From positions 23,188 through 87,187 of the forward strand of contig JASGEH010000069.1 of the NCBI GenBank assembly GCA_047606565.1: a DNA stretch of 64,000 nt, read 5' to 3'. Position numbers and translations under genes: made by a program. Shown in pieces: positions 2,627 to 32,377 of the stretch. The DNA comes from Comamonas sp. Its GTDB lineage: Bacteria; Pseudomonadota; Gammaproteobacteria; Burkholderiales; Burkholderiaceae_C. The notes below the pieces were generated by a model. The model was not told the DNA's origin. It worked only from the letters and a program-made list of their open reading frames with translations, and did no database searches. Each line of letters starts with the position of its first letter. Position 1 is the stretch's first letter.

Positions 2627-4891
2627 TCACAAGATAGTCAGTTCCAACACGTCCCCCTCCACCCCCACCGGCGTGCCAGCGGCGACAGGTAGAAGAGAGA
2701 TGGTCAGCTTGGTCCCCGCCGGATACACCGGCAGCAGCAGCTCCCGCCCCAACACCGTGACATGCCCGGCCACCGGCACCTGCTCGGCGGCGCCGCCGTC
2801 GACCGACACGCGCACGTCGGCGCCGTGGGCGGCTTCGAGTTCCCAGACCAGGCGCAGCGCACCGCCGTCCGCCGGCAGCGCGGCAAGGTTGAAGGCGCGG
2901 GCCACCAGACGTTCGCCGCTGGTGACTTCGGGCACGGTGCCCAAGCCGTACTCCAGCGGGTAGTAGGCCTCGTACTCGTCCCGGGCCGTGATCTTGACGC
3001 GCCGGGCGCTGGACGGCTCCATGCCGATGATGCGCACGCGTTTGCCAGGTGTTGCCAGAGGGCCGGCCAGGAAGGTCCAGTCCTCGGGCAGCGTGTCTTC
3101 CCAGTCCTCGACGGCCTCGTCGTTGAGCGTGGCCGCGCCCAGCCAGCCGGGCGCATCCTCGGCCGACCAGGTGCCCTGCACGACGAGGCGGCGGGTGCGG
3201 CCATCGGGTGGAGCGCACAGCACCGTGAACGGGTCGCCACCTGGCGGGGTGACCATCAGCCAGAACTCGGTACCGCCCTCGGGCAACTCGACCTCGGCCG
3301 AGAGATCCACGGCCGTGACCTGGCCATCGGCGACAGCCAGGCCGCGTAGGCGGCCGCTGTAGGCCCACCGGGTCAGGTCATGGGCGAGCTGGATGATGTC
3401 GCCCGTGGCCACGGTCAGGCCCATGAGCGTGCTCTCCCAGGTCATCGTGCGCCGGTGGTAGTAGGCTGACGCCGCCAGCAGGTTGACCAGGCGCTGGGCC
3501 TGGGCCTGCGGCATGCTGTAGACCGCCTCCTCGACGGTCTGATTGACCGGCAGCGTCACGCCGGGCACCGTGGCATAGACCGTGTCGGCCTCGTAGTCAT
3601 TGTCGGATCGGGGATACGACAGCCCGAACTCGTCGACCGTGTCGTCCGTGATGTAGGCGATGCGGAAGGTGCCGGCAACGATGTTGCTGGCGCCGAACGC
3701 GGTCAGCCAGGGCTGGCCCGCGGCCTCCCACCAGACCGAGAGCTTGCCCGGTGCCCAGGTCTTGCGCGCGCGGCCGGCGGCGGCGATGTCGTCGAGCACC
3801 GCCCCGGCGCTGCGCTGCGACGACAGCGCCATGCGGCAGGTCAAGCCGGCGCTGTCGCAGAACTGGCCCCAGGCGATCAGCGTGCCGTAGTCGATCCGGT
3901 TGTTGGTCAGCCCGGCACCGAACAACCGCGCGCCATTGCTCGCGGCCGGCTCGTCCAGCCAGCCGGCCTGGCCCAGGTGATCCGGCGCGGCCGTGGCGTT
4001 CAGGAACCCGCCCCGCGCGAAGTAGAGGAACAGCCAGGCCGGATTGACCGTGTACGTCCACGTCCACGCACCGTTGCCCGAACCCGGCAAGGAACCGTCC
4101 CACGGATCGCTGCTGTCCCACACCCAGCACTTGCTGCGCACCAGGGCCGAGTAGCGGTCCACCGTGCCGCTGAGCTGCCCGGTCGCCTTGATGAGCAGCC
4201 CCTGCCGGCGCTGGGCCGGGTACAGCGCGTCGCCTTCGCGGAACACTTTCACGCGGGTCCATTCCAGCTCCGAGACGTCGTTGGCATCGGTCGGGTCGGG
4301 CGTCACGCGGCGCACCTGGAACTTGATCGCCGGCTGGTCCAGATAGGCCGAGTAGGTCTCGCGGGCCACCCGGCTGCTGCCGTTGGTCATCGTCATGGGC
4401 GAGAACGGGAAATCCACCCACGTCGACGAGCCCGGCACCTGGTACTGCGCCTCGAACACGCACGACAGATTCTCGATGCCACCGCTGCCCTGGCGGAACA
4501 GCCGGCCCGTGATGTCGAGCTGGATGTAGCGTCCGCCCTGCGAGCCCTGGCGCTCGACCCAGCCGCTGTTGGTCACGCTGTCGTTCTGCTCCAGCGCGCC
4601 GCCGTCGACGGTCTGCACATTGCCCGGGAAGTCGTCGCCCGGCCAGTTGACGCTGGTGTAGCCGGCCAGCGCGGTACGGTCGGCCTGGCCGGCGGGCACG
4701 TGGCTGTCGATCAGCTCGGCCGCGTTGTACTGCGCCAGGTCGTTGGCGCCGATACGCGGCTCGCTGATCGTCAGGTCGCCAAAGCCGAAGTTGAACTGCT
4801 GCGTCAGCCGCTCCGTGTTGTAGGTGACCGTGTAGCCGTACCGAACCAGTACAGGCAGCGCGGTGTTCAGTGCGCTCCAACTCGCCATCAC
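2627..4891 (-). CDS. Host-specificity (lambda gpJ-like) central tail fibre / tail tip protein
   Basis: 754 aa, last large gene of the tail-tip module after the gpK-like and gpI-like genes. It begins with an ATGA overlap on the upstream gene. The central region resembles J-family proteins (…YPAQRRQGLLIKATG…, …NPAWLFLYFARGG…). Confidence 0.75.
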   Translation of the reverse strand: MMASWSALNTALPVLVRYGYTVTYNTERLTQQFNFGFGDLTISEPRIGANDLAQYNAAELIDSHVPAGQADRTALAGYTSVNWPGDDFPGNVQTVDGGALEQNDSVTNSGWVERQGSQGGRYIQLDITGRLFRQGSGGIENLSCVFEAQYQVPGSSTWVDFPFSPMTMTNGSSRVARETYSAYLDQPAIKFQVRRVTPDPTDANDVSELEWTRVKVFREGDALYPAQRRQGLLIKATGQLSGTVDRYSALVRSKCWVWDSSDPWDGSLPGSGNGAWTWTYTVNPAWLFLYFARGGFLNATAAPDHLGQAGWLDEPAASNGARLFGAGLTNNRIDYGTLIAWGQFCDSAGLTCRMALSSQRSAGAVLDDIAAAGRARKTWAPGKLSVWWEAAGQPWLTAFGASNIVAGTFRIAYITDDTVDEFGLSYPRSDNDYEADTVYATVPGVTLPVNQTVEEAVYSMPQAQAQRLVNLLAASAYYHRRTMTWESTLMGLTVATGDIIQLAHDLTRWAYSGRLRGLAVADGQVTAVDLSAEVELPEGGTEFWLMVTPPGGDPFTVLCAPPDGRTRRLVVQGTWSAEDAPGWLGAATLNDEAVEDWEDTLPEDWTFLAGPLATPGKRVRIIGMEPSSARRVKITARDEYEAYYPLEYGLGTVPEVTSGERLVARAFNLAALPADGGALRLVWELEAAHGADVRVSVDGGAAEQVPVAGHVTVLGRELLLPVYPAGTKLTISLLPVAAGTPVGVEGDVLELTIL

Positions 4892-5868
4892 ATGCCTCCA
4901 CCATCGCCGCTGTCGCCGCTGTCACCACTGGAATCCCCGCTGTCGGAGCCGTCGTCGCCCGAGCTGTCGCTTGGCCCATCGCCGCCGCTCGACCCGTCAT
5001 CGCCGGTGTCGGCAATCAGCGTCAGGTAGTCCTCGTAGGTGGCGACCTGGTCGGTGCTGGCCGTGTGGCGCACGACAAAGGTATGCGGCCGCGTGACCGT
5101 GCCGCCACTGCTGCTGGTGTAGGTCCGGCTCGCGCCATCGCCGTAGTACGCCAGCAGATCGCCATCGGTCGCCGAGCCCGTCGTCGAGATCAGCACCCAC
5201 GGCGACAACACCTCGCCGGCAGAGAACCCGAAGTCCGGGTGCGTCTGCGTCTCGTAGACCGGCGTGTTGTTGATCACCTCGGTCGTGGTCGTCGGGTCCA
5301 GCACGTACTCGGCGAAGGGCCGGCAGGCGTAGTCCGGATACACCCGGTGCTCACCCAGAACCAACTGCAACGGCTCGTAGGGCCGCGCCGAATTCGAGCC
5401 GCCCTCCACGCTGTAGGCCGTGGGCGCATCGTCGGCGGCATAGGCACTGCTGCTGCTCTTGCGCGCGAGCGACGACGCCAGCGTCGAGACCGCGAAGGCG
5501 ATCGCCGCATTGGCCGCAAACGCGATAGCCGTGCCCAGCACAAAGGCCGTGCCATAGGCCATGTTGGCCGACATGATCAGCTTGGCCGTGACCGCGCTGC
5601 CCTCGACCACGCCCTTGGGCACCTGGCGCAGCACCAGCAAGTCGGAGACGGCCACGGGCGTGGCGGACCACTGCTCGGCACCCAGCGGCCGGCCGTTGAT
5701 GACCACGGCCAGCGGCGTCGACGCCAGGCCCAGCCGGCCGACGATAGCCTGCACCGTATCGCCCGGCACCAGCGCCACCGTCAGCGCCTGGCGGTCGCTG
5801 GCCGGCCGCAGCGGGTTCGGGCACCAGGTGACCGAGATGGTGGGCATCAGCCCCGGGTCTACAGCCAT
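4888..5868 (-). CDS. Tail assembly protein gpI-like with a C-terminal extension and an Asp/Gly/Ser-rich tail
   Basis: The start at 5868 (MAVDPGLMPTISV…) overlaps the gpK-like stop. The layout follows lambda gpI: a ubiquitin-like N-terminus, a hydrophobic AFVLGTAIAFAANAAIAFAV segment, then a …LVLGEHRV… motif. About 100 extra residues end in DDGSSGGDGPSDSSGDDGSDSGDSSGDSGDSGDGGG. The long upstream part of ORF 4888..6297 is an Arg/Pro-rich shadow. Confidence 0.65.
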   Translation of the reverse strand: MAVDPGLMPTISVTWCPNPLRPASDRQALTVALVPGDTVQAIVGRLGLASTPLAVVINGRPLGAEQWSATPVAVSDLLVLRQVPKGVVEGSAVTAKLIMSANMAYGTAFVLGTAIAFAANAAIAFAVSTLASSLARKSSSSAYAADDAPTAYSVEGGSNSARPYEPLQLVLGEHRVYPDYACRPFAEYVLDPTTTTEVINNTPVYETQTHPDFGFSAGEVLSPWVLISTTGSATDGDLLAYYGDGASRTYTSSSGGTVTRPHTFVVRHTASTDQVATYEDYLTLIADTGDDGSSGGDGPSDSSGDDGSDSGDSSGDSGDSGDGGGM

Positions 5869-6227
5869 GCGTAGTAGCCCTCCACCTTGTACGGCAGCCG
5901 GGCCAGTGGCGTGCGCACGCTCGACCCGAACAGCGAATCGCTGTGCAGCACATAGGGCACGCGGTCTATCAAGCAGTACAAACCGATGTGCGCCCGGCGG
6001 CCGCGCGCCCACATCAGCACGCCGCAGCCGTCCTCGGCCTGGCCGATGGGCCGGGCGAAGTCCGCCGCGTGATCGACGATCAGGCTGGAGCGATGCACCA
6101 GGTCGTCCGCCTGGCGCTGGGGGAAATGCACGTCGCGGCCTAACTGCTCGCGCAGAACGCGCTCGACAAGCTGACCGCAGTCCAGCACGGCGTGCGGGAT
6201 GTTGAGATAAGGATCGGACCAATGCAT
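5859..6227 (-). CDS. NlpC/P60-family tail protein (lambda gpK-like position)
   Basis: 122 aa with a Cys motif (LDCGQLV) and a downstream His (RRAHIGLY) typical of NlpC/P60. It sits between the DUF1833-like and gpI-like genes. Confidence 0.7.
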   Translation of the reverse strand: MHWSDPYLNIPHAVLDCGQLVERVLREQLGRDVHFPQRQADDLVHRSSLIVDHAADFARPIGQAEDGCGVLMWARGRRAHIGLYCLIDRVPYVLHSDSLFGSSVRTPLARLPYKVEGYYAWL

Positions 6228-6703
6228 CAGAACAGCCCCGGCGCAGTCTCCGGCCGGTAGGTGTAGCCCACGGCCGACTTGTTGAGGATGTCGTCATAGC
6301 CGAGCTGGCCGGTGACGGACTTGACGGTTACTTCGATGTTGCGCAGATCCAGCGTCAGCTCGTCCTCCACGAAATCCGGCGCGCCGCGCATGATCTGGAT
6401 CGCCGTAATGACCGCGCCCCGGCCACCGTGCGTGCGCTCGAAGAACGCGCCCACGCCGCCCGAGAAGTTGGCAATGGCCAAGCTGGCCGCCGGCGTGCGG
6501 CCGTCCTGGTCATCGGGCCAGACGAACTCGAAGGCGCTGGCCAGGTACAGCCGCTCGCGCGAGACGATGTCGGCGTTGTCATTGACGAAGCGCATGGGCT
6601 CGGGCAGCAACGCATGCGACAGCTCCAGCAACATCAGCGGCCGGTCGTCGGGCGAGAGCTGCTGCGCGGCGCGGCGGAATCGAGTGGACTTGCGCGCGCT
6701 CAC
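6227..6703 (-). CDS. Minor tail protein, DUF1833-like (gpL position)
   Basis: 158 aa, overlapping its neighbours by 1-4 nt. The position follows the tape measure and a gpM-like gene. The family call is from memory of DUF1833 phage proteins. Confidence 0.55.
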   Translation of the reverse strand: MSARKSTRFRRAAQQLSPDDRPLMLLELSHALLPEPMRFVNDNADIVSRERLYLASAFEFVWPDDQDGRTPAASLAIANFSGGVGAFFERTHGGRGAVITAIQIMRGAPDFVEDELTLDLRNIEVTVKSVTGQLGYDDILNKSAVGYTYRPETAPGLF

Positions 6704-7077: not shown

Positions 7078-10000
7078 TCAGTTCCTTTGCATCGCGGCCT
7101 TGATGGCCCGCGTGCCGCGCCCGCCGTTCTGGGCATCGGCCACGAGCACGTCGATGACCCAACTGCCGCTTTCCTGGGTGACCTTGGCGTCGCCGACCTG
7201 CTGCTTGGCCGTGCCGGTATTCGTGAAGCGCACCAGCACTTGGGGCGCCGACGTGGCCGATTCGCTGCCGCTGGACGACGAGACCGAACCGCCTGTGGCG
7301 AAGCGCACGCGCTGGCTGGCCGAAACCAGTCCACCAAAGGCGAACTGCGGCTTGGGCAGGCGCAGCGTGCGCACGGCTTCCATGAAAGGCAAGCCGTAGT
7401 GCTGCACCGCGCGCTCGGGGTGGATGAACTCGTTGTTGCTCACGCGGATGGGCCGCACGCCGTCGACAAGCGCCGGGATGCTGTCGCTGGTGCCAGTGCC
7501 CGGCCCGACGATGCGGCCGCCCGTGGACGGCGAGCCACCCTCAGCGAATCCCAACACCGAACGGACGCCGGAGGCCACTGCACCGATGACGGTGGTGCCG
7601 CCACCCGAGCCCGAGTCCACCGTGAACAGGTTGGTCAGCAGCCGCTTGATGTCGGACCGGACGATATCGGCGGCGATCTGCTTAAGAGTGGTGGCGGCCG
7701 CGTCGCGCAAGTTGCTCCAGTTGGCCACCGCCGTGGCGGCGGCATCGGCCATGCCGTCGATAACGGTATTGCGCAGGCGCGTGCCCAGGTCGACCACCAC
7801 CGGCGTCGCGGCTGCCGCTGTGTTTCGCAACTGGCCGATGCTGGTATTCATGCTGTCAAGCGCCACGACTGCATCCGGTGGCAGCGCGTCCCGGATGCGC
7901 TCCAGCTCGGCCACGATCTGCTGCAGCATCGGCACCTGCGCCGCGCGTGCCTGCTGGATCTTCGCTTCGCCCTGAATCTGGCTGATCTGCCCGCTGCTGA
8001 CCTGGTTCTGGATAGCCTGCTCGATCACCCCGAGCTCGCCCTGCAGACGCTGGGCCTCCGCCAGCTTGTTGTTGAACTCGGCCTGCGCGGCGGCGGCCTG
8101 GAGCAGCAGCTCGATGCGTTCCTTGGCGGCGTTGGCTTCGGCCGGGTCGGAAATCCGGCCCGCCGCCTGCAGATCGCCCGCGTACTGCTGGCGCAGTTGC
8201 TGCTCGATGGCCCGGCGGTCGAACTGGCCCGTCAGTGCTGCGGTGTCCACGCGCAGGCGCACCGTCAGATTCGCCAGCTTCAACTCCTCGGCCTTGCGCC
8301 AGTCGGCCAGGGCCTGTTCGGCCGTGGTCAGGCTCGTGCCCAGCACCTTGAGCTGCGCCTGGATCTCGACCTTGCGCGCCTTGGTCGTGCCGGCCGTGCG
8401 GGCTTCATCCTCCAGCGCCTTGCGCTGCGCCGCGCTGTCCTCGCGCAGGGCTGCCAGGCGCTGGGCGTAGGCATCGTCCAGGCTGACGCGGCCTTCTTCC
8501 AGCGCCTTCACCAGCACCGCATCGCTGCTCTTGATGGCCGCCTGCAGCGCGGCCAGGTCGGACTTGATCTGCTGTATGGCCACGGCCGCCGCCGAGTCGC
8601 CCTTGGCGCCGCCCTTGTTGGCCCGCTCGCGCAGCGCCTTCAGGCGCGTGTCGTATTCGTCCTGGCTGATGCCGCCGCCTGCGGTGCCGGCGGCCAGCAG
8701 CGCGTCCAGGTCTTTCTTGGCCGCCGCGAGTTTCTCGGCCTCGGTCTTGTAGGCCTTGCCCTCGGCGTCGAACTGCTCGCGCAGCAGCTTGATGCGGCGC
8801 TCTTCCGCCGTTTTGGCGGCCTGGCCGTCGGCGTCGGCCGCTTCCTGCGCCAGTTGGCCCTGCAGCTCGGTCAAGCGCCCCTGCGCCGCCGCCAGAAGCT
8901 GGGGCAGATTGCCCAGGGCACGCGTGCCCCGGCGTTCGATCTGCTGCTGCAGCCCGGCCACCGTGGCCTCCTGCGACTGCAACTGCGCATCCAGGGACTT
9001 CTGCTGCCCGATGCCCAGCATCGCGCTCCACGCGCTGCCGGCGGCCCCAGTCACGGCCTGCCAGGCCCGTTGCAAGATGCCCAGGTTGTCCGGCACCACG
9101 CGGCCAAAGTGATCGGCCGCAGCCCGGCTCAGTTCGAGCTGCGCCTGCTCGGCACGCCCCTGCTCGACCAGCAGCGCGATGTGCCGCCGCTGTGAGGCCG
9201 AGAGGAAGTTGAACTGATCGTCGAGCTGCTTGGCCGCCCGCGCCGGGTCAGCGAACAGCTTGGCCAGCGACGACGCGGCCGCATCGACCGATTGGCCCGT
9301 GGCCTGCGCGTAGCCGTTGACGGCCGTGGTCAGGTTGCCGATGACCTGGATGCCCAGCCGCCCGGACTGCACCATGGCCACGGCCGCCGACTCGGCCACA
9401 CTCTTGCTGATGCCGCTGACGCGGTTGGCCTCCTCGGCCAGCGCCTTGATCCGGCCCAGCGTCGCGCCCGCCGCATTGCCCGTGGTCTGGATGGCCACGT
9501 TGTAGGCCAGGGCGTCACGCTCGCCCTTGATCATGATCGCGGCCAGCGTGCCAATGCCCACCGCCAGGCCGCCGACCGCCAACTTGGCCGGGCTGAGCAG
9601 CGCGGTCATGGCCTTGGCCGCCGGGCCGATGCCGCCGAAGCTGTCCTTGATCTGCCCGCCTTGCTGGATCGCCACCAGCCACACCGGCATGCCGCTGGCC
9701 AGGCTGGTCGTGATGTCCGTGATCTGCGCCGGCAGCATGCGCATCGCCGCCGCAGTCTGGCCCGCCGACACGCCCAGGCCGGTGTAACGCTGTTGCGCCA
9801 GGGCGACCAGGCGCGTGTGCTGTTCCTGGGTGACGAGGCCCTTGGAGAGGGCCGTATTCAGCTCGACCTGCGCGGCCGCCAGCTTTTGCGAATCCACGGC
9901 CGCAGGGTCCAGGCTGCCGATCAGGCGGTCGATGGCGGCCTTCTCTTTGTCTGTGGCCTGTGCTGTCGCCTCTGCGGCCTGGGCTTGCTTCTGCTGCCAG

Positions 10001-20324: not shown

Positions 20325-21581
20325 TCATGCCTGATCGTCCTCGCGCTGGTACAGCCGCACGCCCAGGCGCAGGCTCTCCAGGTAGTCGCCGGTGGCGGGC
20401 TGGAATGCCGTCACGCCCGTCCAGCCGTCCGCGCCCACCTCGAACACCACCAGTGCCGGCACGTCCTCGCCTTCGACCGGGAAACGCGCGACGTAGCGAC
20501 GTCGAACAACTGCCTTCTTCAGGGCATACATCCATTCCAGCCGCACCCAGATTTCATCGGGCTGCAGCAGCGCCTGCGCCAGCAGCGGCAGGAGCTGCTC
20601 GCGCCCGTTCTTGAGCACCTTCCAATCGCCCTGGGTGTCGGTGAACAATTCCTTGCCCACCACCAGCCGCTCGCCGATGACATCCCGCACGATGGCCGGC
20701 TGATCCCGCGTGGCGCCCAGCGGCTGCAGGAAGCTGTCGACATAGGTCTCGGGCGCCAGGCCCTGGGGCAACACCGCGTTGGCGGGCGCTGGGCGCGCCG
20801 GCGGCAGCGGATCGGCCGGGCGCGTGTTGGGCAGGCCGTGCCCATGCACGCTGCCCGCGCCGCCGGGGCGGATGCCGTCCGGTCGCTCGGGGGGAATGGC
20901 GCCGCGCAGCCGCGCCGCGCCGGGCGCGTACTCGAAGCCCGGGTCGATGCCGACCGGCACGCGCACCGTGCGCGGCCCATTGGACGAGCGCTGGCCGATG
21001 ACCTGGTCGACCCAGGTGACCGTGGGCGTCGGGTCCGGCCCCGTCTTGCCCAGACGCGCCAGGTCCTCGGGCCACAGGCCACGCATTTCGCAATGACAAC
21101 CCCAGCCGTTCGGCGGGAAATGGATACGCAGCCATGGGTTTCCACGCTCCAGAACCAGCCCATTCCAGGCCTGGTGCAGCGGGCGCGGGTGTTCCACCCA
21201 GTCCTGGTGCACGTACTGCCAGTACGGCGCGTCCTGCAGTTGCTCCCAGCGGCCGGCGGCGTAGCTGGTCGAGAGGTTGGTGTCGTAGATCACCCGGCTG
21301 CGCCAGTCGCGCCCGCCGTTGTAGTCCCAGCCGTGGGTGGCGACGATGCGGTCGAAGTCACGGCGGAAGGTCTCCAGCGTGGTGCCATCGACAATGGCCT
21401 TGTCCACCGCCGCGCGGAAGTCCGTCACGATGGCATCGCGGTTGGCCCCGGCCACGACGAATGCCCAGTCGTGCTCCTGCAGGTAGATGTCGGTCCAGCT
21501 GACCGTCGGCAGGTTGACCTTGCGCCGGAAAAACTCGGCCTGTTCGCGGAACGGCAGCGAGGCGTAAGACGCATCAGCCAT
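20325..21581 (-). CDS. Mu gpF-like minor head protein
   Basis: 418 aa. The N-terminal …LPFREQAEFFRRKVNLPT… and …NGWGCHCEM… motifs resemble the Phage_Mu_F family. It directly follows the portal gene. Confidence 0.8.
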   Translation of the reverse strand: MADASYASLPFREQAEFFRRKVNLPTVSWTDIYLQEHDWAFVVAGANRDAIVTDFRAAVDKAIVDGTTLETFRRDFDRIVATHGWDYNGGRDWRSRVIYDTNLSTSYAAGRWEQLQDAPYWQYVHQDWVEHPRPLHQAWNGLVLERGNPWLRIHFPPNGWGCHCEMRGLWPEDLARLGKTGPDPTPTVTWVDQVIGQRSSNGPRTVRVPVGIDPGFEYAPGAARLRGAIPPERPDGIRPGGAGSVHGHGLPNTRPADPLPPARPAPANAVLPQGLAPETYVDSFLQPLGATRDQPAIVRDVIGERLVVGKELFTDTQGDWKVLKNGREQLLPLLAQALLQPDEIWVRLEWMYALKKAVVRRRYVARFPVEGEDVPALVVFEVGADGWTGVTAFQPATGDYLESLRLGVRLYQREDDQA

Positions 21582-27060: not shown

Positions 27061-27267
27061 TCAGGCGCGCCGGCCGCGCAAGGCCCGGCGATGGCGCGCG
27101 CGATGGCGCACCTTGGCGGCCAGGCGCTGCACCTGGCGCGGGCTCCAGCCACGGCGCGCGCGGCGGCCGTAGCCAGCCGGCGCTGCGAACGCGCCGAGGC
27201 CCGTGCCAATGCGCCAGCCCAGGCCGGCCAGAACGGTGGCGACGAGAGCGCGCAGGCGCTGCCTCAT
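27061..27267 (-). CDS. Small single-TM protein with a strongly basic C-terminus (68 aa), lysis-cassette associated
   Basis: ATGA overlap with the endolysin stop. One TM segment (LVATVLAGLGWRIGTGLGAF) is followed by an Arg-rich tail. High GC makes a chance ORF possible. Confidence 0.4.
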   Translation of the reverse strand: MRQRLRALVATVLAGLGWRIGTGLGAFAAPAGYGRRARRGWSPRQVQRLAAKVRHRARHRRALRGRRA

Positions 27268-27770
27268 GCCGCGCCGCCAATCTTTTGCAGATTGCCCGCC
27301 ACGCGCCGCGCCCAGCCCCGGCCGAAGGTGGGCCAGGTGGACAGGCTGCTCATGAACTGCAGGCGGTGGCCGGAGAAGCGCGCGCGCAGCGCGGGCACAT
27401 TGGCCCGGGCCAGTTCCGCAAGCGTCTGCGGCCCGACCACGCCATCCTCGGCCAGGCCGAGCGCGCGCTGCAGGTGGCGGATGGCCGTGCCGATGCCGCT
27501 GTTGACGGCAAAGTCGAACACGTCGAAGGCCAGCCCCGGCGCCATCTGGTCGCAGCGCGCGCGCAGCCAGTAGTCGCGCAGGTAGATGGCCTTGGCGTCG
27601 GCCAACGTCAGCCCGGCGATGTCGAGCTGCGGATAGGCGCGCTTGGAGATGCCGTACTTCGTCTCGCCGCCCGGGTCGCGCGGGTCGTTGACGTAGCCGC
27701 CCTCATGCCCGATGACCTGGGCGAAGGCTTGCTCGAAGGCGGGGGGAAAGGGTGTGGTGCTGGTGGACAT
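27264..27770 (-). CDS. Endolysin, glycoside hydrolase family 108 N-terminal domain with a peptidoglycan-binding C-terminal domain
   Basis: …VIGHEGGYVNDPRDPGGETKYGISKRAYP… is the GH108 signature, and the C-terminal …GLAEDGVVGPQTLAEL… is PG_binding-like. No signal or SAR sequence is present. Confidence 0.9.
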   Translation of the reverse strand: MSTSTTPFPPAFEQAFAQVIGHEGGYVNDPRDPGGETKYGISKRAYPQLDIAGLTLADAKAIYLRDYWLRARCDQMAPGLAFDVFDFAVNSGIGTAIRHLQRALGLAEDGVVGPQTLAELARANVPALRARFSGHRLQFMSSLSTWPTFGRGWARRVAGNLQKIGGAA

Positions 27771-27773
27771 GAT

Positions 27774-27793
27774 GGCTCTGGGGTGACAGAGCC
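27774..27793 (-). promoter_or_regulatory. Hairpin 3 nt upstream of the endolysin start codon
   Basis: The transcribed strand reads GGCTCTG-TCACCC-CAGAGCC-ATC-ATG. No clear Shine-Dalgarno is present. The geometry (7-bp stem, 6-nt loop) matches the hairpin at the tape-measure start. Confidence 0.45.
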
Positions 27794-27859
27794 GTCAGTC
27801 TCGGATTCAGCGGGGCGGGCGTAATTGGAAGGCGTTCAGTTTGTGCATATGAGGCACGC

Positions 27860-28450
27860 TCAAGGCGGATCAGCGTCTTTACCCCCAGATCGTCCCTGAA
27901 AGCCCGCGTACATTTTTGCAATTCTGAAGATATGCATGGTGGCAGCCACCACCGACGTCAACGCATACAGGAAAAGCCCATACCCTATTGCGCCACCCAC
28001 CGCATTCAAAAACGGAAGTGCTGGGCGGATAGGATCCACCAAGGGCGTGTAGAACCACCAGGATTTCGCCAGAATGGCTGCCACCAGCGCCAAGGCCTGC
28101 ACAAGGATGAAATGTACGAAGGTAGAGCACAGTGCCACATAAGCATTGATGTCTGACTCTTCATCATCTTCCGCCAAGATGGCCCGGAATTTCTCGTCAC
28201 CAAAGCCGATAAAAATTGCGAAGCCCCCCAGCGTGAATCCCAGCAAGTTGGGTAGGACGATGATGCTTTGTTCCCACCACGGATCACACTCCAGCCCCAC
28301 GCACCCAAAGCCTATCCATGTTTGAGCCGTAAGCGTCAAAAGAACAATCGCAAGATGCAAATACGGCGAGCATGCCAAAGCCCCCAAGCCACCGTAGGCG
28401 ACCCAGTACACCCTGAAGATATCTGCAACGCCCTTGTATTGCTTAAACAT
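27860..28450 (-). CDS. Multi-pass membrane protein (196 aa, about 4-5 TM), second gene of a low-GC accessory pair
   Basis: The ATG immediately follows the TAA of the upstream gene (…TAAATG…). Hydrophobic segments include IIVLPNLLGFTLGGFAIFIGF, AYVALCSTFVHFILVQALALVAAIL and LNAVGGAIGYGLFLYALTSVVAA, with an acidic loop (EDDEESD). I recognised no family. Confidence 0.75.
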   Translation of the reverse strand: MFKQYKGVADIFRVYWVAYGGLGALACSPYLHLAIVLLTLTAQTWIGFGCVGLECDPWWEQSIIVLPNLLGFTLGGFAIFIGFGDEKFRAILAEDDEESDINAYVALCSTFVHFILVQALALVAAILAKSWWFYTPLVDPIRPALPFLNAVGGAIGYGLFLYALTSVVAATMHIFRIAKMYAGFQGRSGGKDADPP

Positions 28451-29335
28451 TTACTGATTGGCCGCGCTGCGCCTTTGCTTTGCACTGGCCCGGTCTAAAA
28501 CATTCCAAATGGTTTCCACTTTCTCATCCACGAGTTGTGGATAGATCGCTGGCTTTGCTCTGGTTGACTCTGATGCCTTGATCCCGGCTGCATCATAGCC
28601 AATCGCTTCCACATGACCATTGTTTGCGGCAGCTTTGGCCTCAGCCTTCATTTCTTCGTCAGGAATAATACCCTCTGGATCTCTTGAAGTCATCACCTCT
28701 TGAATGCGGTTGATGTTGCGCCTTTCCATGCGCCTCATGATACGTTGCTCGACATCTCCTCCATCATCCGCGTTCGGTCGTTTGAACTCGAAAATGATCT
28801 TGGTCATCCGGTGGATGCTTAGCACTTCATCCACCGCGGTTTCATCAGGAATGACAGTGACCTCTACGGGTGGAGCGTCGTGCTGTCGAGAGACTTCATT
28901 GAAAATCTGTTGCAAGAACCCTTCCGCGATAGATGGTCCCATCGTCGATTTTCTATCCTTGCTGATATACCAAAATCGATGCTCCTTGGGTCTGAAGACA
29001 AACAGGATACGCTCCAAATTGGGATGAAGATTCCCCGGAATGAAGATATTTTCGGTGTCGGCTTCGTCTGCTGGTTTACCTGTTTGTGTATTGAACCAAG
29101 GCGCATCTGGATCGATGTTCGTGAAGCGGTAAATCTCTCCTTGTAACTCATTTTTTTCCACCGCTTTTTCGCTCTCATAAAGCGCGCCAAGTAAATATCC
29201 ATCCGATCTACCTCGACTGGCGATGCGCTTCAGTCGGTATGCCTTCTGAAATAGTTCTACATATGCCTGCGGGCTGTGGGGCGCATGCATTGAGATATTG
29301 ATCTGACGAATTTCAACTGTTCTTGGTTTGGCCAC
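28451..29335 (-). CDS. Soluble 294-aa protein, possibly DUF4747 family, first gene of the low-GC accessory pair
   Basis: GTG start preceded by GAGGAGG. The N-terminus …VEIRQINISMHAPHSPQAYVELFQKAY… and the length fit my recollection of DUF4747, with low certainty. There are no TM segments, and codon use is AT-richer than the phage backbone. Confidence 0.7.
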   Translation of the reverse strand: MAKPRTVEIRQINISMHAPHSPQAYVELFQKAYRLKRIASRGRSDGYLLGALYESEKAVEKNELQGEIYRFTNIDPDAPWFNTQTGKPADEADTENIFIPGNLHPNLERILFVFRPKEHRFWYISKDRKSTMGPSIAEGFLQQIFNEVSRQHDAPPVEVTVIPDETAVDEVLSIHRMTKIIFEFKRPNADDGGDVEQRIMRRMERRNINRIQEVMTSRDPEGIIPDEEMKAEAKAAANNGHVEAIGYDAAGIKASESTRAKPAIYPQLVDEKVETIWNVLDRASAKQRRSAANQ

Positions 29336-29437
29336 AAATCGCCTCCTCGGGGTACAAAGTTAAAGATTTGAAATTGATCAGTCTGCCCACCGCACCGGCA
29401 CATTCGCCGCACATGACGTGGGCCGTCAATCCATGAG

Positions 29438-29935
29438 TCACTGATACGGATCTGCGCTGACCGGCCGCGACGGGCTATAGCTCAGTCTGCGTTCCAACTC
29501 CCGCACCTGGGCGTTGAGTTGCCGAATACGATCGCTCATCTGCGCAGCATCGGGCCCTGTGGGGTTGGCGACCAACTGGGACCGGATCAAAGCGCGCTCT
29601 TCCTTTGCCGCCGCCCACTCGTCCTCCCACCGTTTCCATGTCGCCTTGGACTGCGGGCCCACGCCTTCCGAAACCGCTTTTGCGGCGTAACCCTGCGCGC
29701 GCATGCACAGGATCATCAGGTTGTTGCGGCGCTGTTTTTGGTCAATGCCCTGCAGCCAGTAGCCCACGCTGTAATCCGGCGTCTGGGTGGCCGAAGTCGT
29801 TTCGTACTGGCAGCGGTCAACGGCCCGGTCGACAGGTGTGGCGTCGTCGCGCGTGGGCGTCCAGGTCAGCACGGGCTGGTTGACGGCGCAGCCGGCCAGC
29901 AACAGGCAGATGGCAATGAAGAGGCCGCTACGCAT
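29438..29935 (-). CDS. Lipoprotein (165 aa) with a C-terminal coiled coil
   Basis: Signal peptide plus lipobox (LLLAGC). The start overlaps the upstream gene by 8 nt. The C-terminal segment …IRQLNAQVRELERRL… is helical. Confidence 0.75.
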   Translation of the reverse strand: MRSGLFIAICLLLAGCAVNQPVLTWTPTRDDATPVDRAVDRCQYETTSATQTPDYSVGYWLQGIDQKQRRNNLMILCMRAQGYAAKAVSEGVGPQSKATWKRWEDEWAAAKEERALIRSQLVANPTGPDAAQMSDRIRQLNAQVRELERRLSYSPSRPVSADPYQ

Positions 29936-30557
29936 GGCGGATGGGCTCCACCGCCCAGTTCGACCCTACGCCAAAGGCCGCTTTGCAACTCGGGCACGAG
30001 TCGGAATCCAGCGCAATGGCGGACCGGCAATTCGGACACACGCCCTGGGGCTTTTCTGGCTCTGTCGGCGGGGACGCCACCGTCGACACCCGCACTGCGG
30101 AGGTGGCTTCCAGCGGCGGTAGCTCGCTGCGGCAATGCTTGCAGAGCTTCGCGGCGGCCTTGACCGTTTCGGCGCAGAACGGGCAGGTCCGGGTGTCCCC
30201 GGCCAGGGGAGCCACGGCAGCCGGCGCTGGCGTGCCCCGGTGCTGTTCGATGAGCTCGACGGCGCGATTTCGGGTGAGCGCCCAGATCAGCGCGGCGACC
30301 CAGGGCAGCAAGGCCCATCCCAACAAGAAGTTGAGCCAGAACACGGCGAGGCCGTTGTCATGGGCGCGCTCGAAGGCCACGAATGACGGGATGAAGTAGG
30401 CCGCGCCCGACAGCGCCAGCATGACTCCCAAAAGAATGGCGGCACCGCCGCCTCCCCCGGCCAGCGAAAGCAGCGCAACGATGCCGGAAACTGCGGCGAT
30501 CCCGATTAACAGGTTTTTGCTGTTTGTCCTCATGATCCTCTCCCTATCGCCTTTCAT
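29928..30557 (-). CDS. Superinfection-immunity (T4 Imm-like) membrane domain fused to two zinc-ribbon motifs
   Basis: …YFIPSFVAFERAHDNGLAVFWLNFLLGWALLPWVAALIWALT… matches the Imm_superinfect-type motif as I recall it. The C-terminal zinc ribbons are CPFC…CKHC and CPNC…CPSC. Confidence 0.7.
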   Translation of the reverse strand: MKGDRERIMRTNSKNLLIGIAAVSGIVALLSLAGGGGGAAILLGVMLALSGAAYFIPSFVAFERAHDNGLAVFWLNFLLGWALLPWVAALIWALTRNRAVELIEQHRGTPAPAAVAPLAGDTRTCPFCAETVKAAAKLCKHCRSELPPLEATSAVRVSTVASPPTEPEKPQGVCPNCRSAIALDSDSCPSCKAAFGVGSNWAVEPIRHA

Positions 30558-30581
30558 CTGTATGTCCTGACAGTTAGCGTT

Positions 30582-31076
30582 TCAACACGATGCAGGGTTT
30601 TTTTTAATAGGATGAGCCAGAAAGCGCCAGGACAGCCAGCTCACGATCAAGGAAAAAAGCACGAAGATCAGCGCTTGCATTTGCGCCATGACTGACAACG
30701 GGCGCCCTGGCGTAACCAGTAACATGCCCATCACGACGAGTCCCAAGCAGGCCATCACCGTTGTGATGAAGTAACCCGACAAAGAAAGCAGGACGTCCTT
30801 CTTGGGCTCAATCAGAACCGGGCGCTGCGGGCCATCTGGTGCATCAGCCCGCACGCCTAATGGGGCGTTCTGAATCTGTTGTGTTGGTTCGATTACGATT
30901 CGTTCTGGCGCTGGCGGCCATTGAATAATGGTCAGATGGCTGACATGGGTATGGTTCACAACACTGCCCACCACATTCCCTCCAACCTCCCCGACCTGGA
31001 CGTGGCCCGATCCCGTACCACTGATGGCCTGATCCGGGGGCTGGCTGGGTAACTGGTCTTCTGGTTTGTCTTGCAT
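30582..31076 (-). CDS. Membrane protein (164 aa): N-terminal repressor-tail-like motif and a C-terminal 2-TM hairpin
   Basis: It starts 68 nt downstream of the repressor stop on the same strand. Residues 17-38, AISGTGSGHVQVGEVGGNVVGS, parallel repressor residues 127-148. The two TM segments are LLSLSGYFITTVMACLGLVVMGMLLV and ALIFVLFSLIVSWLSW. Confidence 0.7.
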   Translation of the reverse strand: MQDKPEDQLPSQPPDQAISGTGSGHVQVGEVGGNVVGSVVNHTHVSHLTIIQWPPAPERIVIEPTQQIQNAPLGVRADAPDGPQRPVLIEPKKDVLLSLSGYFITTVMACLGLVVMGMLLVTPGRPLSVMAQMQALIFVLFSLIVSWLSWRFLAHPIKKNPASC

Positions 31077-31144
31077 CCCTCATTCCTCCTGCTGTTCGAC
31101 ATGGGCTGGCAGGCGCGGAAAGCTGCTTTGCCAGCGAATCCCCG

Positions 31145-31618
31145 TTACTTCGTCTTGCGTGGCGCCCTCGCAGGCGAGCCATACACATCCCCACTGGTCG
31201 ATCCCACTTGCACGTGACCGTTGCCAGAGCCGGTAATGCTCATGCTGCCAGGGGGCTTGGACGACGTTTTTCCCGATGTCCCCGCGAGGCCCGCCGCCAG
31301 CAGCGCCGCCGTCTGGATGAGGTTGGCCTTGGCCTGCGGCGACGCGCGGCGGTAGCTGTCGAGCAGCACCTGCTCGGCCGGGTCCAGCGTGGGCGCGGCC
31401 GGATCGCGCGTGCCCGTCAGGACGTAGGCCACGTCCACTCCCGCCCCCCATAACGCTGACAGCACTTCGCCGCCCGGCACGGCCAGCCCGCGCTCGTATC
31501 GGCCCCATTGCTCTCGCGTCACGAACGCCAGCGCGGCGGCTTCAGCCTGGCTGAGGCCGAGCGCTGTCCTGGCGTCTTTCAGGCGACCCCCAAAAAGAGA
31601 TGAAAAATTCTCTTTCAT
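31145..31618 (-). CDS. XRE-family HTH repressor (phage c-repressor candidate)
   Basis: The N-terminal HTH is …LKDARTALGLSQAEAAALAFVTREQWGRYERG…. The gene diverges from the Ner-like gene across an AT-rich operator region. No S24 peptidase domain is present. Confidence 0.8.
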   Translation of the reverse strand: MKENFSSLFGGRLKDARTALGLSQAEAAALAFVTREQWGRYERGLAVPGGEVLSALWGAGVDVAYVLTGTRDPAAPTLDPAEQVLLDSYRRASPQAKANLIQTAALLAAGLAGTSGKTSSKPPGSMSITGSGNGHVQVGSTSGDVYGSPARAPRKTK

Positions 31619-31621
31619 ATC

Positions 31622-31650
31622 TTGATGAAGAGACTTTTTGGTCTCATAAT
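31622..31650 (+). promoter_or_regulatory. Candidate early promoter (TTGATG-17 nt-CATAAT) for the Ner-like gene
   Basis: Near-consensus sigma70 hexamers with 17-nt spacing, 67 nt upstream of the ner-like ATG. Confidence 0.5.
31630..31645. promoter_or_regulatory. Candidate operator palindrome GAGAC-N6-GTCTC
   Basis: A perfect 5+5 inverted repeat lying in the spacer of the candidate early promoter, 12 nt from the repressor start codon. Confidence 0.45.
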
Positions 31651-31716
31651 TCGTTTACTCAAGTTCACACCCATGTCATCCCGCGCCAACGGGAGCACAC
31701 ACAACAGGACACAGCC

Positions 31717-31962
31717 ATGGCTCTCAAAAAGCGTTCCGAGGTCCGCGCCGAGTTCATCCGCAAGGGGTGGTCGATCTCGGCGTGGGCCACTCGCAACGGC
31801 TATTCGCCCAACCTGGTCATCGCCATCATCAATGACGACGACGTCAAGCCGGTGCGCAAATGCACGCGGGGCGACTCGCACAACATTGCCGTGCTGCTGG
31901 GCCTGAAGGAGGGGGAGGTTTCCCGCCCACCCCATTTCGGCCGCCTTGCCGCCGCCGCGTGA
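31717..31962 (+). CDS. ner: Ner-like DNA-binding protein
   Basis: 81 aa. …KGWSISAWATRNGYSPNLVIAIIN… parallels the Mu Ner/Nlp HTH region. It diverges from the repressor gene. Confidence 0.7.
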   Translation: MALKKRSEVRAEFIRKGWSISAWATRNGYSPNLVIAIINDDDVKPVRKCTRGDSHNIAVLLGLKEGEVSRPPHFGRLAAAA

Positions 31963-32008
31963 TCCGCCGGAGCCGCGCCATGTCCGTTTCCAGGCATCTT
32001 ACAGGCGT

Positions 32009-32377
32009 TTACACGACTGTTACCGCCGAAAAAGCCGGGACTTTCCGGCCGGCCACGGCGGCTCGGTGGCTGCGGGCAGCGTCCAGTGCCTGGGCCAGTT
32101 CCCGCAGTGTGCGCCCGGCGCTGGCCAGCACGGGCGAGTGCGCATCGGGCCTGGAGGTGCGCCAGGCGCCGGATAACTGCGCGCCTGCGAGGGTGCCGTC
32201 CTGCTCCAGGACGGCGGCCATCAGCAGCAGCGCGCGGGCCAGGCCTTCGATGCGCCCGGCCAGTTCGTCGAAGTGGCGTGGCGCCATGTCGTCGGCCTTC
32301 TCGTCGGCCATCTCGCCCATTTTCTCGTTCATCTCCTCACCCATCTTCTCGTCCACCGTCTCGTTGATCTCGCCCAT
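32009..32377 (-). CDS. Acidic hypothetical protein (122 aa) with EKMGE-type repeats, antisense to the early arm
   Basis: The ATG at 32377 is preceded by AAGGAG at 7 nt. Codon third positions are strongly G/C (GGC GAG ATC AAC GAG ACG GTG GAC…). The N-terminus is MGEINETVDEKMGEEMNEKMGEMADEKADDM. Confidence 0.65.
   Translation of the reverse strand: MGEINETVDEKMGEEMNEKMGEMADEKADDMAPRHFDELAGRIEGLARALLLMAAVLEQDGTLAGAQLSGAWRTSRPDAHSPVLASAGRTLRELAQALDAARSHRAAVAGRKVPAFSAVTVV

Follow-up and report, generated by a model that had tools for sequence, protein, structure and literature searches.

A DUF4747 gene and its four-helix membrane partner as a candidate RexAB-type phage-exclusion cassette in a Mu-like prophage of Comamonas

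The 64,000-nucleotide (nt) stretch of Comamonas sp. DNA analysed here (contig JASGEH010000069.1, positions 23,188 to 87,187; the window from now on) holds a Mu-like transposable prophage of Comamonas. This prophage carries, on the minus strand, a two-gene cassette that is best explained, with a probability of about 0.62, as a RexAB-type two-component abortive-infection (phage-exclusion) module, borne by the prophage as a moron. The first gene (28451..29335) encodes a soluble protein of 294 amino acids (aa) predicted to share the fold of RexA and RdgC, the putative sensor, and the second (27860..28450) encodes an inner-membrane protein of 196 aa with four predicted transmembrane (TM) helices, the putative effector; the coordinates of both are those of the open reading frame (ORF) list. 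The two genes move as one AT-rich unit among prophages, plasmids and chromosomal islands. A preliminary description of this stretch, which had put forward a membrane-acting anti-phage pair, was right in kind, and the class to which the cassette belongs was already known.

The two genes and their products

The gene layout given in the preliminary description was recovered in full from the sequence. Both ORFs lie on the minus strand; the first opens with a GTG at 29335, behind a GAGGAGG ribosome-binding site (RBS; 29342..29348, read directly from the sequence) with a 6-nt spacer, and the second with an ATG. At the junction (28448..28453) the TAA of the first gene (28453-28451) abuts the ATG at 28450 with zero spacing, which makes it a candidate for translational coupling. 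The GTG start is supported because homologues align from residue 1, as is the case for most of those listed, and the homologue consensus begins MAxxRT. Both ORFs are taken to be real genes, because many conserved homologues of them exist. Each of the two proteins also has a 100%-identical database entry, by which the window matches a contig of a Comamonas sp. metagenome-assembled genome.

The 294-aa protein, which had been assigned to DUF4747 only tentatively, proved to be a full-length member of that Pfam family (PF15931; E = 7.5e-70, 235.7 bits against a cut-off of 27), its residues 13-263 aligning with positions 1-251 of the 257 in the profile. It also belongs to phrog_10040, all of its listed homologues carry PF15931, and nothing was found for it in NCBIfam or PADLOC. 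A DUF4747 profile search over 1.84 billion representative proteins recovered 1,208 clusters at E<=0.001 (clusters being defined at 50% identity), and the best-scoring 150 of these are nearly all about 280-300 aa long, with the match in a single stretch. Over 82 diverse members, H20, Y25, G66, H119, N188 and G240 are invariant, and N13, W80, P100, P187, D190 and A236 are kept in at least 96% of them.

A link with RexA came from the predicted structure. The AlphaFold2 model of the DUF4747 protein (predicted local distance difference test, pLDDT, 88.8; predicted template modelling score, pTM, 0.84) was compared with the PDB by Foldseek, and all five matches at E<=1e-3 were chains of RdgC or of lambda RexA, both of them dimeric proteins that bind DNA non-specifically. 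The RdgC chains, from the E. coli protein and another RdgC entry (2owl, 2owy), scored E = 2.7e-5 to 9.1e-5 with a probability of 1.0, 2owl being the best; the RexA chains were 8twq_B (E = 9.1e-5, probability 0.99) and 8twq_A (E = 2.9e-4, probability 0.95). CENP-N/CENP-L-type kinetochore proteins came next, and the structural relatives described for RexA itself are likewise RdgC, Iml3 and Chl4 (Adams et al., PMC11077077). The matches of the model in BFVD include phage proteins annotated as 'Recombination-associated protein' and 'Exonuclease'. When the PDB chains were searched by sequence, using the protein alone and each of the two profiles, one chance-level match was all that was obtained.

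The 196-aa partner has no Pfam, NCBIfam or PADLOC match; it belongs to phrog_20580 (E = 6e-39) and has 467 homologues. Where the preliminary description had counted four to five TM helices and an acidic loop, four helices and the loop stood and the fifth helix did not: four hydrophobic segments are seen by Kyte-Doolittle analysis and four long helices in the AlphaFold model (pLDDT 87.7), with an amphipathic N-terminal helix ahead of them. The charge distribution suggests an N-in/C-in topology, which would place the central loop (residues 84-102, GDEKFRAILAEDDEESDIN; 28145..28201, minus strand) in the cytoplasm. This loop consists of a GDEKFR motif, nearly invariant in the family alignment, and a following acidic stretch, and contains 8 Asp/Glu against 2 Lys/Arg. 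The other motifs of the family are YW.AYGG, LPNLLGFTLGGFAIFIGFGDEKFR, C.TFVHFI.VQ and AATMH.FRIA, and the invariant polar residues H113 and Q118 lie within helices. The segment from TM2 through the loop to TM3 (28085-28279, minus strand) is where blastn most often still finds a match in distant loci, with 65-80% identity at many loci whose DUF4747 proteins are only 30-40% identical. In the Foldseek search of BFVD with the TM model no RexB-like match appeared, and the sole convincing one was an uncharacterised protein of the uncultured phage ctylc9, which is among the best BFVD structural matches for both cassette proteins.

Pairing, mobility and prophage setting

Whether the two genes go together elsewhere, a point that the preliminary description had left to their homologues, was approached from both sides. 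Starting from the TM protein, 33 loci were found in GTDB genomes, and in 31 of them a DUF4747 ORF of the same strand immediately precedes the TM gene; starting from DUF4747, the TM gene lies directly downstream in 11 of 11 IMG/VR viral contigs. The two exceptions are a locus cut by a contig end (L021) and a true orphan (L013, from a Comamonadaceae metagenome-assembled genome, JAYVPU010000014.1). In the orphan, the TM gene (7198-7764) has no DUF4747 gene upstream, and the nearest upstream ORF (4777-6537, opposite strand, 586 aa) resembles, by eye, an N6-adenine methyltransferase or type IIG-like enzyme. Among the 31 paired loci, that of Comamonas sediminis JCM 31169 (L008, 6969-7983) has an intact TM gene downstream of a DUF4747 gene that an apparent frameshift has divided into two overlapping ORFs.

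The distance at the gene junction stays between -20 and +18 nt in 36 of 36 related loci, and DUF4747 relatives of as little as 23-27% identity, on an Acinetobacter plasmid and a Niveispirillum replicon, also precede the same TM family. The TM protein of the Acinetobacter lwoffii plasmid matches the partner family with an hhalign probability of 99.7%, and that of the Niveispirillum replicon was assigned by shared motifs, read by eye. A strain-specific Salmonella locus in which a DUF4747 gene of 894 bp is followed by a hypothetical gene of 606 bp has been reported (PMC11181664). The two genes diverge in a correlated manner (r=0.855), and the TM protein is more conserved than the DUF4747 protein in 97% of 820 locus pairs; the faster divergence of the sensor is to be expected if it is the sensor that takes part in the arms race.

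The AT-richness of the cassette was borne out by measurement. Its GC content of 0.504 compares with 0.643 and 0.703 for the 4-kb flanks; in 400-nt windows the value falls to 0.47-0.54 over 27800-29400, against 0.65-0.75 around, and GC at third codon positions (GC3) is 0.50 and 0.61 in the two genes, against 0.8-0.95 in the neighbouring ones. The same trend was observed in 42 of 42 loci, with a mean difference of -0.10 from the flanks. The nucleotide similarity to the closest relatives runs from ~29351 to ~27894, that is, over the RBS and the two ORFs, and therefore the RBS travels with the cassette. Besides the RBS, the 102-nt gap upstream (29336..29437, minus strand) shows no conservation together with the cassette, and the immediate neighbours in the window, encoding a lipoprotein, an Imm_superinfect protein and a GH108 endolysin, are not conserved at other loci. 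The proposal of an independently acquired cassette thus agrees with a similarity that ends at the ORF ends and with the low GC found at every locus.

The pair occurs in Alpha-, Beta- and Gammaproteobacteria, where it is carried by prophages, plasmids and chromosomal islands. A survey of the GTDB neighbourhoods, covering the three nearest ORFs per side and made with no background model, found phage genes (Portal_Mu, Mu F, terminase, capsid) as well as genes of mobile or defence type, namely two type I restriction-modification sets, an MmeI-type enzyme, Gp49/HigB-like and DUF4411 toxins, and serine recombinases. Homologues of the repressor or of ner-like genes stand 1-3 kb upstream of the cassette at nine loci (L019, L035, L036, L040, L041 and L047-L050), and in Leptothrix-type Mu-like prophages the pair is again placed just before an endolysin gene, there of the Peptidase_M15_3 type. 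Some 1.5 kb downstream of the cassette, these Leptothrix-type prophages have a diversity-generating retroelement (12042-15333 in L047; also in L048 and L049), in which a target-like gene of 514 aa is followed by bAvd and an RVT_1 reverse transcriptase. On the mobilisable 11.7-kb Acinetobacter lwoffii plasmid NZ_CP118966.1 (L051, 3161-5515), the pair stands beside a divergent RelE/ParE-NadS toxin-antitoxin pair. A tblastn search of 50,697 GenBank phage genomes with both proteins gave no match, compared with the 11 IMG/VR contigs mentioned above; none of the sequenced cultured phages in that set thus has a close relative of the pair.

Within the window, the prophage has on its plus strand an rve-type transposase and a MuB-like AAA_22 ATPase, and on its minus strand Mu gp27, the large terminase, Portal_Mu, Mu F and the gpT major head protein. 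A C-terminal PBECR2 nuclease domain of the Barnase/EndoU/RelE-like kind (E=5e-30) is part of the Mu F-like head morphogenesis protein (20325-21581, minus strand). The cassette lies between the repressor and the lysis genes and in the orientation of the repressor, as had been described. A putative prophage repressor gene (31145..31618, minus strand; HTH_31/HTH_3 by Pfam) is the first of the minus-strand block that holds the cassette, with a ner/cro-like gene (31600-31962, plus strand) divergent from it. The GH108 endolysin gene (27264..27770, minus strand; Pfam) shares the strand of the cassette, from which it is separated by 89 nt (27771..27859), and is followed by a holin-like gene (DUF7940).

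Three moron genes stand between the cassette and the repressor. The nearest encodes a lipoprotein (29438..29935, minus strand) that starts with MRSGLFIAICLLLAGC and has the lipobox LLAGC, which accords with the lipoprotein gene and the 102-nt gap of the preliminary description. Two genes upstream of the cassette, a 209-aa membrane protein (29928-30557, minus strand) with an Imm_superinfect domain (E=7e-14) and double zinc-ribbon motifs is encoded by a candidate superinfection-immunity gene. Directly downstream of the repressor there is a low-GC gene (30582-31076, minus strand; GC3 0.62) for a protein of 164 aa that is hydrophobic in its C-terminal part and has no Pfam match, probably another moron in the repressor-to-lysis slot. 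As to signals, two sigma-70-like hexamer pairs lie within the 3' end of the DUF4747 gene (28592-28693, minus strand), upstream of the TM gene; promoter-like sites numbered 3, against 1.8 expected from shuffles, which is not significant. These pairs recall PLIT, the promoter internal to lambda rexA.

The RexAB-type reading and its rivals

The observations described so far could be integrated by a model of the following kind. In the lysogen, both proteins would be present at a low level, probably made from the repressor-side transcript. When another phage infects the cell, the DUF4747 protein, probably a DNA-binding dimer, would sense phage DNA, a replication or recombination intermediate, or a DNA-protein complex, and would activate the membrane partner, which would then oligomerise into a channel or pore. 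The membrane would be depolarised or permeabilised, ATP would drop, growth would stop, and the infection would be aborted before progeny are formed. Family membership, fold, topology, pairing, mobility and location were computed in this analysis; DNA binding, activation, membrane damage and phage exclusion are brought in from lambda RexAB, Sbash gp30/31, CarolAnn gp44/43 and Pseudomonas putida RexABpp, and it is by analogy with these that we infer a defence function for the family of DUF4747 proteins and their 4-TM partners. In the P. putida system, RexBpp permeabilises the membrane when it is stimulated by RexApp (PMC12894663).

Several facts weigh against this model. The structural agreement is limited in its global measures, with Foldseek template modelling scores (TM-scores) of ~0.3 (RdgC ~0.32) and root-mean-square deviations of 13-16 A; these low scores are plausibly due to differing angles between two hinged domains in the predicted model, since RexA has been described as hinged. 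Moreover, the top structural match is RdgC, a recombination protein, rather than RexA. In sequence, the window proteins match neither PF15969 nor PF15968 nor the PADLOC RexA and RexB models, while lambda RexA and RexB both match their models strongly, PF15969 being the only Pfam match of RexA. Direct homology to lambda RexA and RexB was considered and rejected, as BLASTP, profile-sequence and profile-profile comparisons were all insignificant; hhalign gave a probability of 0.2 for DUF4747 against the RexA profile and of 0.1 for the TM family against RexB, the DUF4747 profiles being built from alignments of 39 and 82 sequences (effective sequence number, Neff, 5.4, for the latter) and the RexA profile from 27. 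Homology to the CarolAnn pair fared no better (probability 0.3 for DUF4747 profiles of the 39- and 82-sequence type against gp44, and 0.1 for the TM family against gp43). The TM partner has no detectable relation to either RexB or CarolAnn gp43. CarolAnn gp44 (370 aa) itself has no Pfam match at E<=10, and for gp44 and gp43 there is no Pfam or PADLOC match.

In addition, expression of the cassette in the lysogen is assumed, because a simple scan of 27200-32100 found neither a sigma-70-like promoter nor an intrinsic terminator in either intergenic gap. Housekeeping genes flank the cassette at some GTDB loci, and the neighbourhood survey, lacking a statistical background, speaks for compatibility with a defence moron and not for enrichment. 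Finally, no defence phenotype for a bona fide PF15931 member was found in the searchable literature. Taken with these points, the cassette would work like RexAB by virtue of its architecture, predicted fold and location, whereas by sequence it belongs to neither the RexA/RexB nor the CarolAnn families.

A departure from RexA, with the defence retained, is conceivable. The pair could be an independent and widespread proteobacterial defence family that shares only an RdgC-like scaffold, in which H20, Y25, H119, N188 and D190, a constellation absent from RexA, would form a catalytic or ligand-binding site. Were this so, the sensor would detect or process a signal unlike that of RexA, and the conserved partner would represent a new effector class; we consider this unlikely. 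Also judged improbable is a toxin-antitoxin or addiction module, with the TM protein as a latent toxin under DUF4747 control; the pair would then serve mainly to stabilise its prophage or plasmid and would sense no incoming phage. The position beside a RelE/ParE pair on a small mobilisable Acinetobacter plasmid speaks for it, as do the HigB-like Gp49 and DUF4411 toxin families among the genome-locus neighbours, the tight two-gene layout, typical of such modules, and the suppression of growth by RexBpp (PMC12894663). However, the soluble partner of those Rex-type systems that have been characterised switches the membrane protein on instead of neutralising it (PMC12894663), and both the orphan TM gene and the intact TM gene next to a frameshifted DUF4747 gene count against an antitoxin role, because neither state would be viable with DUF4747 as an essential antitoxin. 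Addiction and abortive infection are, in any case, not mutually exclusive.

A role intrinsic to the prophage, in lysis timing or in the switch between lysogeny and lysis, is more doubtful again. The TM protein would here be a holin- or antiholin-like protein, or act in superinfection exclusion, and the DUF4747 protein would be its DNA-binding regulator; for comparison, RexA acts in the lambda switch independently of RexB. The cassette does lie immediately upstream of the endolysin gene, in the window as in the Mu-like prophages of the Leptothrix type, and a divergent repressor/ner pair is found 1-3 kb away at many loci. Nevertheless, the adjoining endolysins are of different types (GH108 and Peptidase_M15_3), the immediate neighbours are not conserved, the composition is foreign to the phage backbone in all 42 loci, and the window has a separate holin-like gene after the endolysin. 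The holin reading in particular was given less weight because the pair also occurs on plasmids and at chromosomal loci with no phage genes among the three nearest ORFs per side.

The least credible of the rivals, to which we give very little weight, is a modulator of recombination or replication similar to RdgC, which would, for example, restrain RecA on phage or transposing DNA, the TM protein being a mere tether that kills nothing. RdgC is a ring-shaped, dimeric and non-specific DNA binder and gives the best structural match of the DUF4747 model (2OWL/2OWY; E=2.7e-5, probability 1.0); the BFVD matches with recombination and exonuclease annotations and the transposable nature of the Mu-like host element point the same way. 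However, the 294-aa protein does not match the Pfam RdgC family (PF04381) at E<=0.1. RdgC is a housekeeping protein with no membrane partner, and we know of no need for one among RdgC family proteins, whereas the DUF4747 protein is almost never found without its TM gene. Besides, it is the partner that is better conserved, and invariant polar residues lie within its TM helices, which points to an active role in the membrane and not to a tether; the moron-like mobility of the pair also speaks against such a modulator.

Comparison with known systems

The RexAB-type reading gives the family an interest beyond this prophage. No abortive-infection system has been known for longer than RexAB, the mechanism of which is not yet settled. 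The family of DUF4747 proteins and their partners is large (~1,200 clusters), is missed by PADLOC v2, and has an effector for which no Pfam model exists. It offers a much larger comparative set than the lambda-type Rex proteins, one in which the effector is conserved, the sensor evolves fast and some residues are invariant and could be mutated, and this set could help to show how sensors with the RexA fold are coupled to membrane effectors. In annotation, a DUF4747 gene followed by a gene for a protein with the motifs YW.AYGG, LPNLLGF.LGG and TFVHFI..Q could be flagged as a candidate Rex-type defence pair.

Among the systems to which the preliminary description had compared the cassette, Kiwa was set aside, as no PADLOC KwaA or KwaB model was matched. 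More generally, PADLOC-DB v2.0.0 gave no match at E<=0.1 for the two cassette proteins and their three upstream neighbours; it includes models for lambda RexA and RexB and none that matches the CarolAnn or DUF4747 pairs. The resemblance to RexAB, which had been drawn from architecture, now extends to the soluble protein's predicted fold (8TWQ, Foldseek probability 0.99). Both systems have a gene for a soluble protein (294 aa here, 279 aa in lambda RexA) followed by one for a small 4-TM protein, and both are placed in the repressor region and co-oriented with the repressor, position and orientation being observed in the window and expression assumed; the model also shares with RexA its RdgC and Chl4/Iml3-type kinetochore neighbours (PMC11077077). 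They differ in that the membrane partner has 196 aa and belongs to a strongly conserved family of its own, against the 144 aa of lambda RexB, in that three moron genes come between cassette and repressor in the window, and in that lambda is a lambdoid phage and the host element here a Mu-like one.

The notion of a pair with no assigned function, and hence of a new defence system, did not hold. DUF4747-like proteins with 4-TM partners have been discussed as RexAB-like abortive-infection systems since 2019, namely Sbash gp30/31, CarolAnn gp44/43 and Butters gp30/31 (PMC6426596, PMC6426606, PMC7542560), all prophage-encoded, expressed in the lysogen and experimentally protective against heterotypic phages. 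A paper of 2026 includes a 'DUF4747/CarolAnn prophage system' in its list of immune operons, known or predicted, and gives 17 Acinetobacter cases that lie downstream of capK/capS (PMC13373217). The connection that has been published between DUF4747 and Rex-like systems consists of weak HHpred matches (for Butters gp30, probability 69, E=140; PMC7542560) and could not be reproduced in the sequence comparisons made here. The cassette resembles the actinophage systems in combining, within a prophage, a cytoplasmic protein and a 4-TM membrane protein. It differs from them in that the 294-aa protein truly belongs to PF15931, which it matches at full length, and CarolAnn gp44 has no Pfam match, and in that the hosts of the actinophages are Actinobacteria and the cassette family is found in Proteobacteria. 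RexA homologues, the actinophage soluble proteins included, have been described as DNA-binding dimers (PMC11077077), and RexB, Sbash gp31, CarolAnn gp43 and RexBpp as 4-TM proteins, N-in/C-in, with a cytoplasmic central loop (PMC6426596, PMC6426606, PMC12894663).

The closest experimental counterpart is RexABpp (PP_5643/PP_5644) of P. putida prophage P1, for which a RexAB-type function has been demonstrated (PMC12894663). Like the cassette, it is a pair from a proteobacterial prophage, composed of a DNA-binding protein with the RexA fold and a 4-TM effector. RexApp is probably not a PF15931 member, since it is reported to match lambda RexA in HHpred (98%) and to have BLAST relatives annotated only as 'hypothetical protein' (PMC12894663). 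On stimulation, RexBpp causes membrane permeabilisation and growth arrest, and the effect of RexApp overexpression depends on RexB (PMC12894663). By analogy, P. putida RexABpp is the best experimental model of how the cassette of the window may work.

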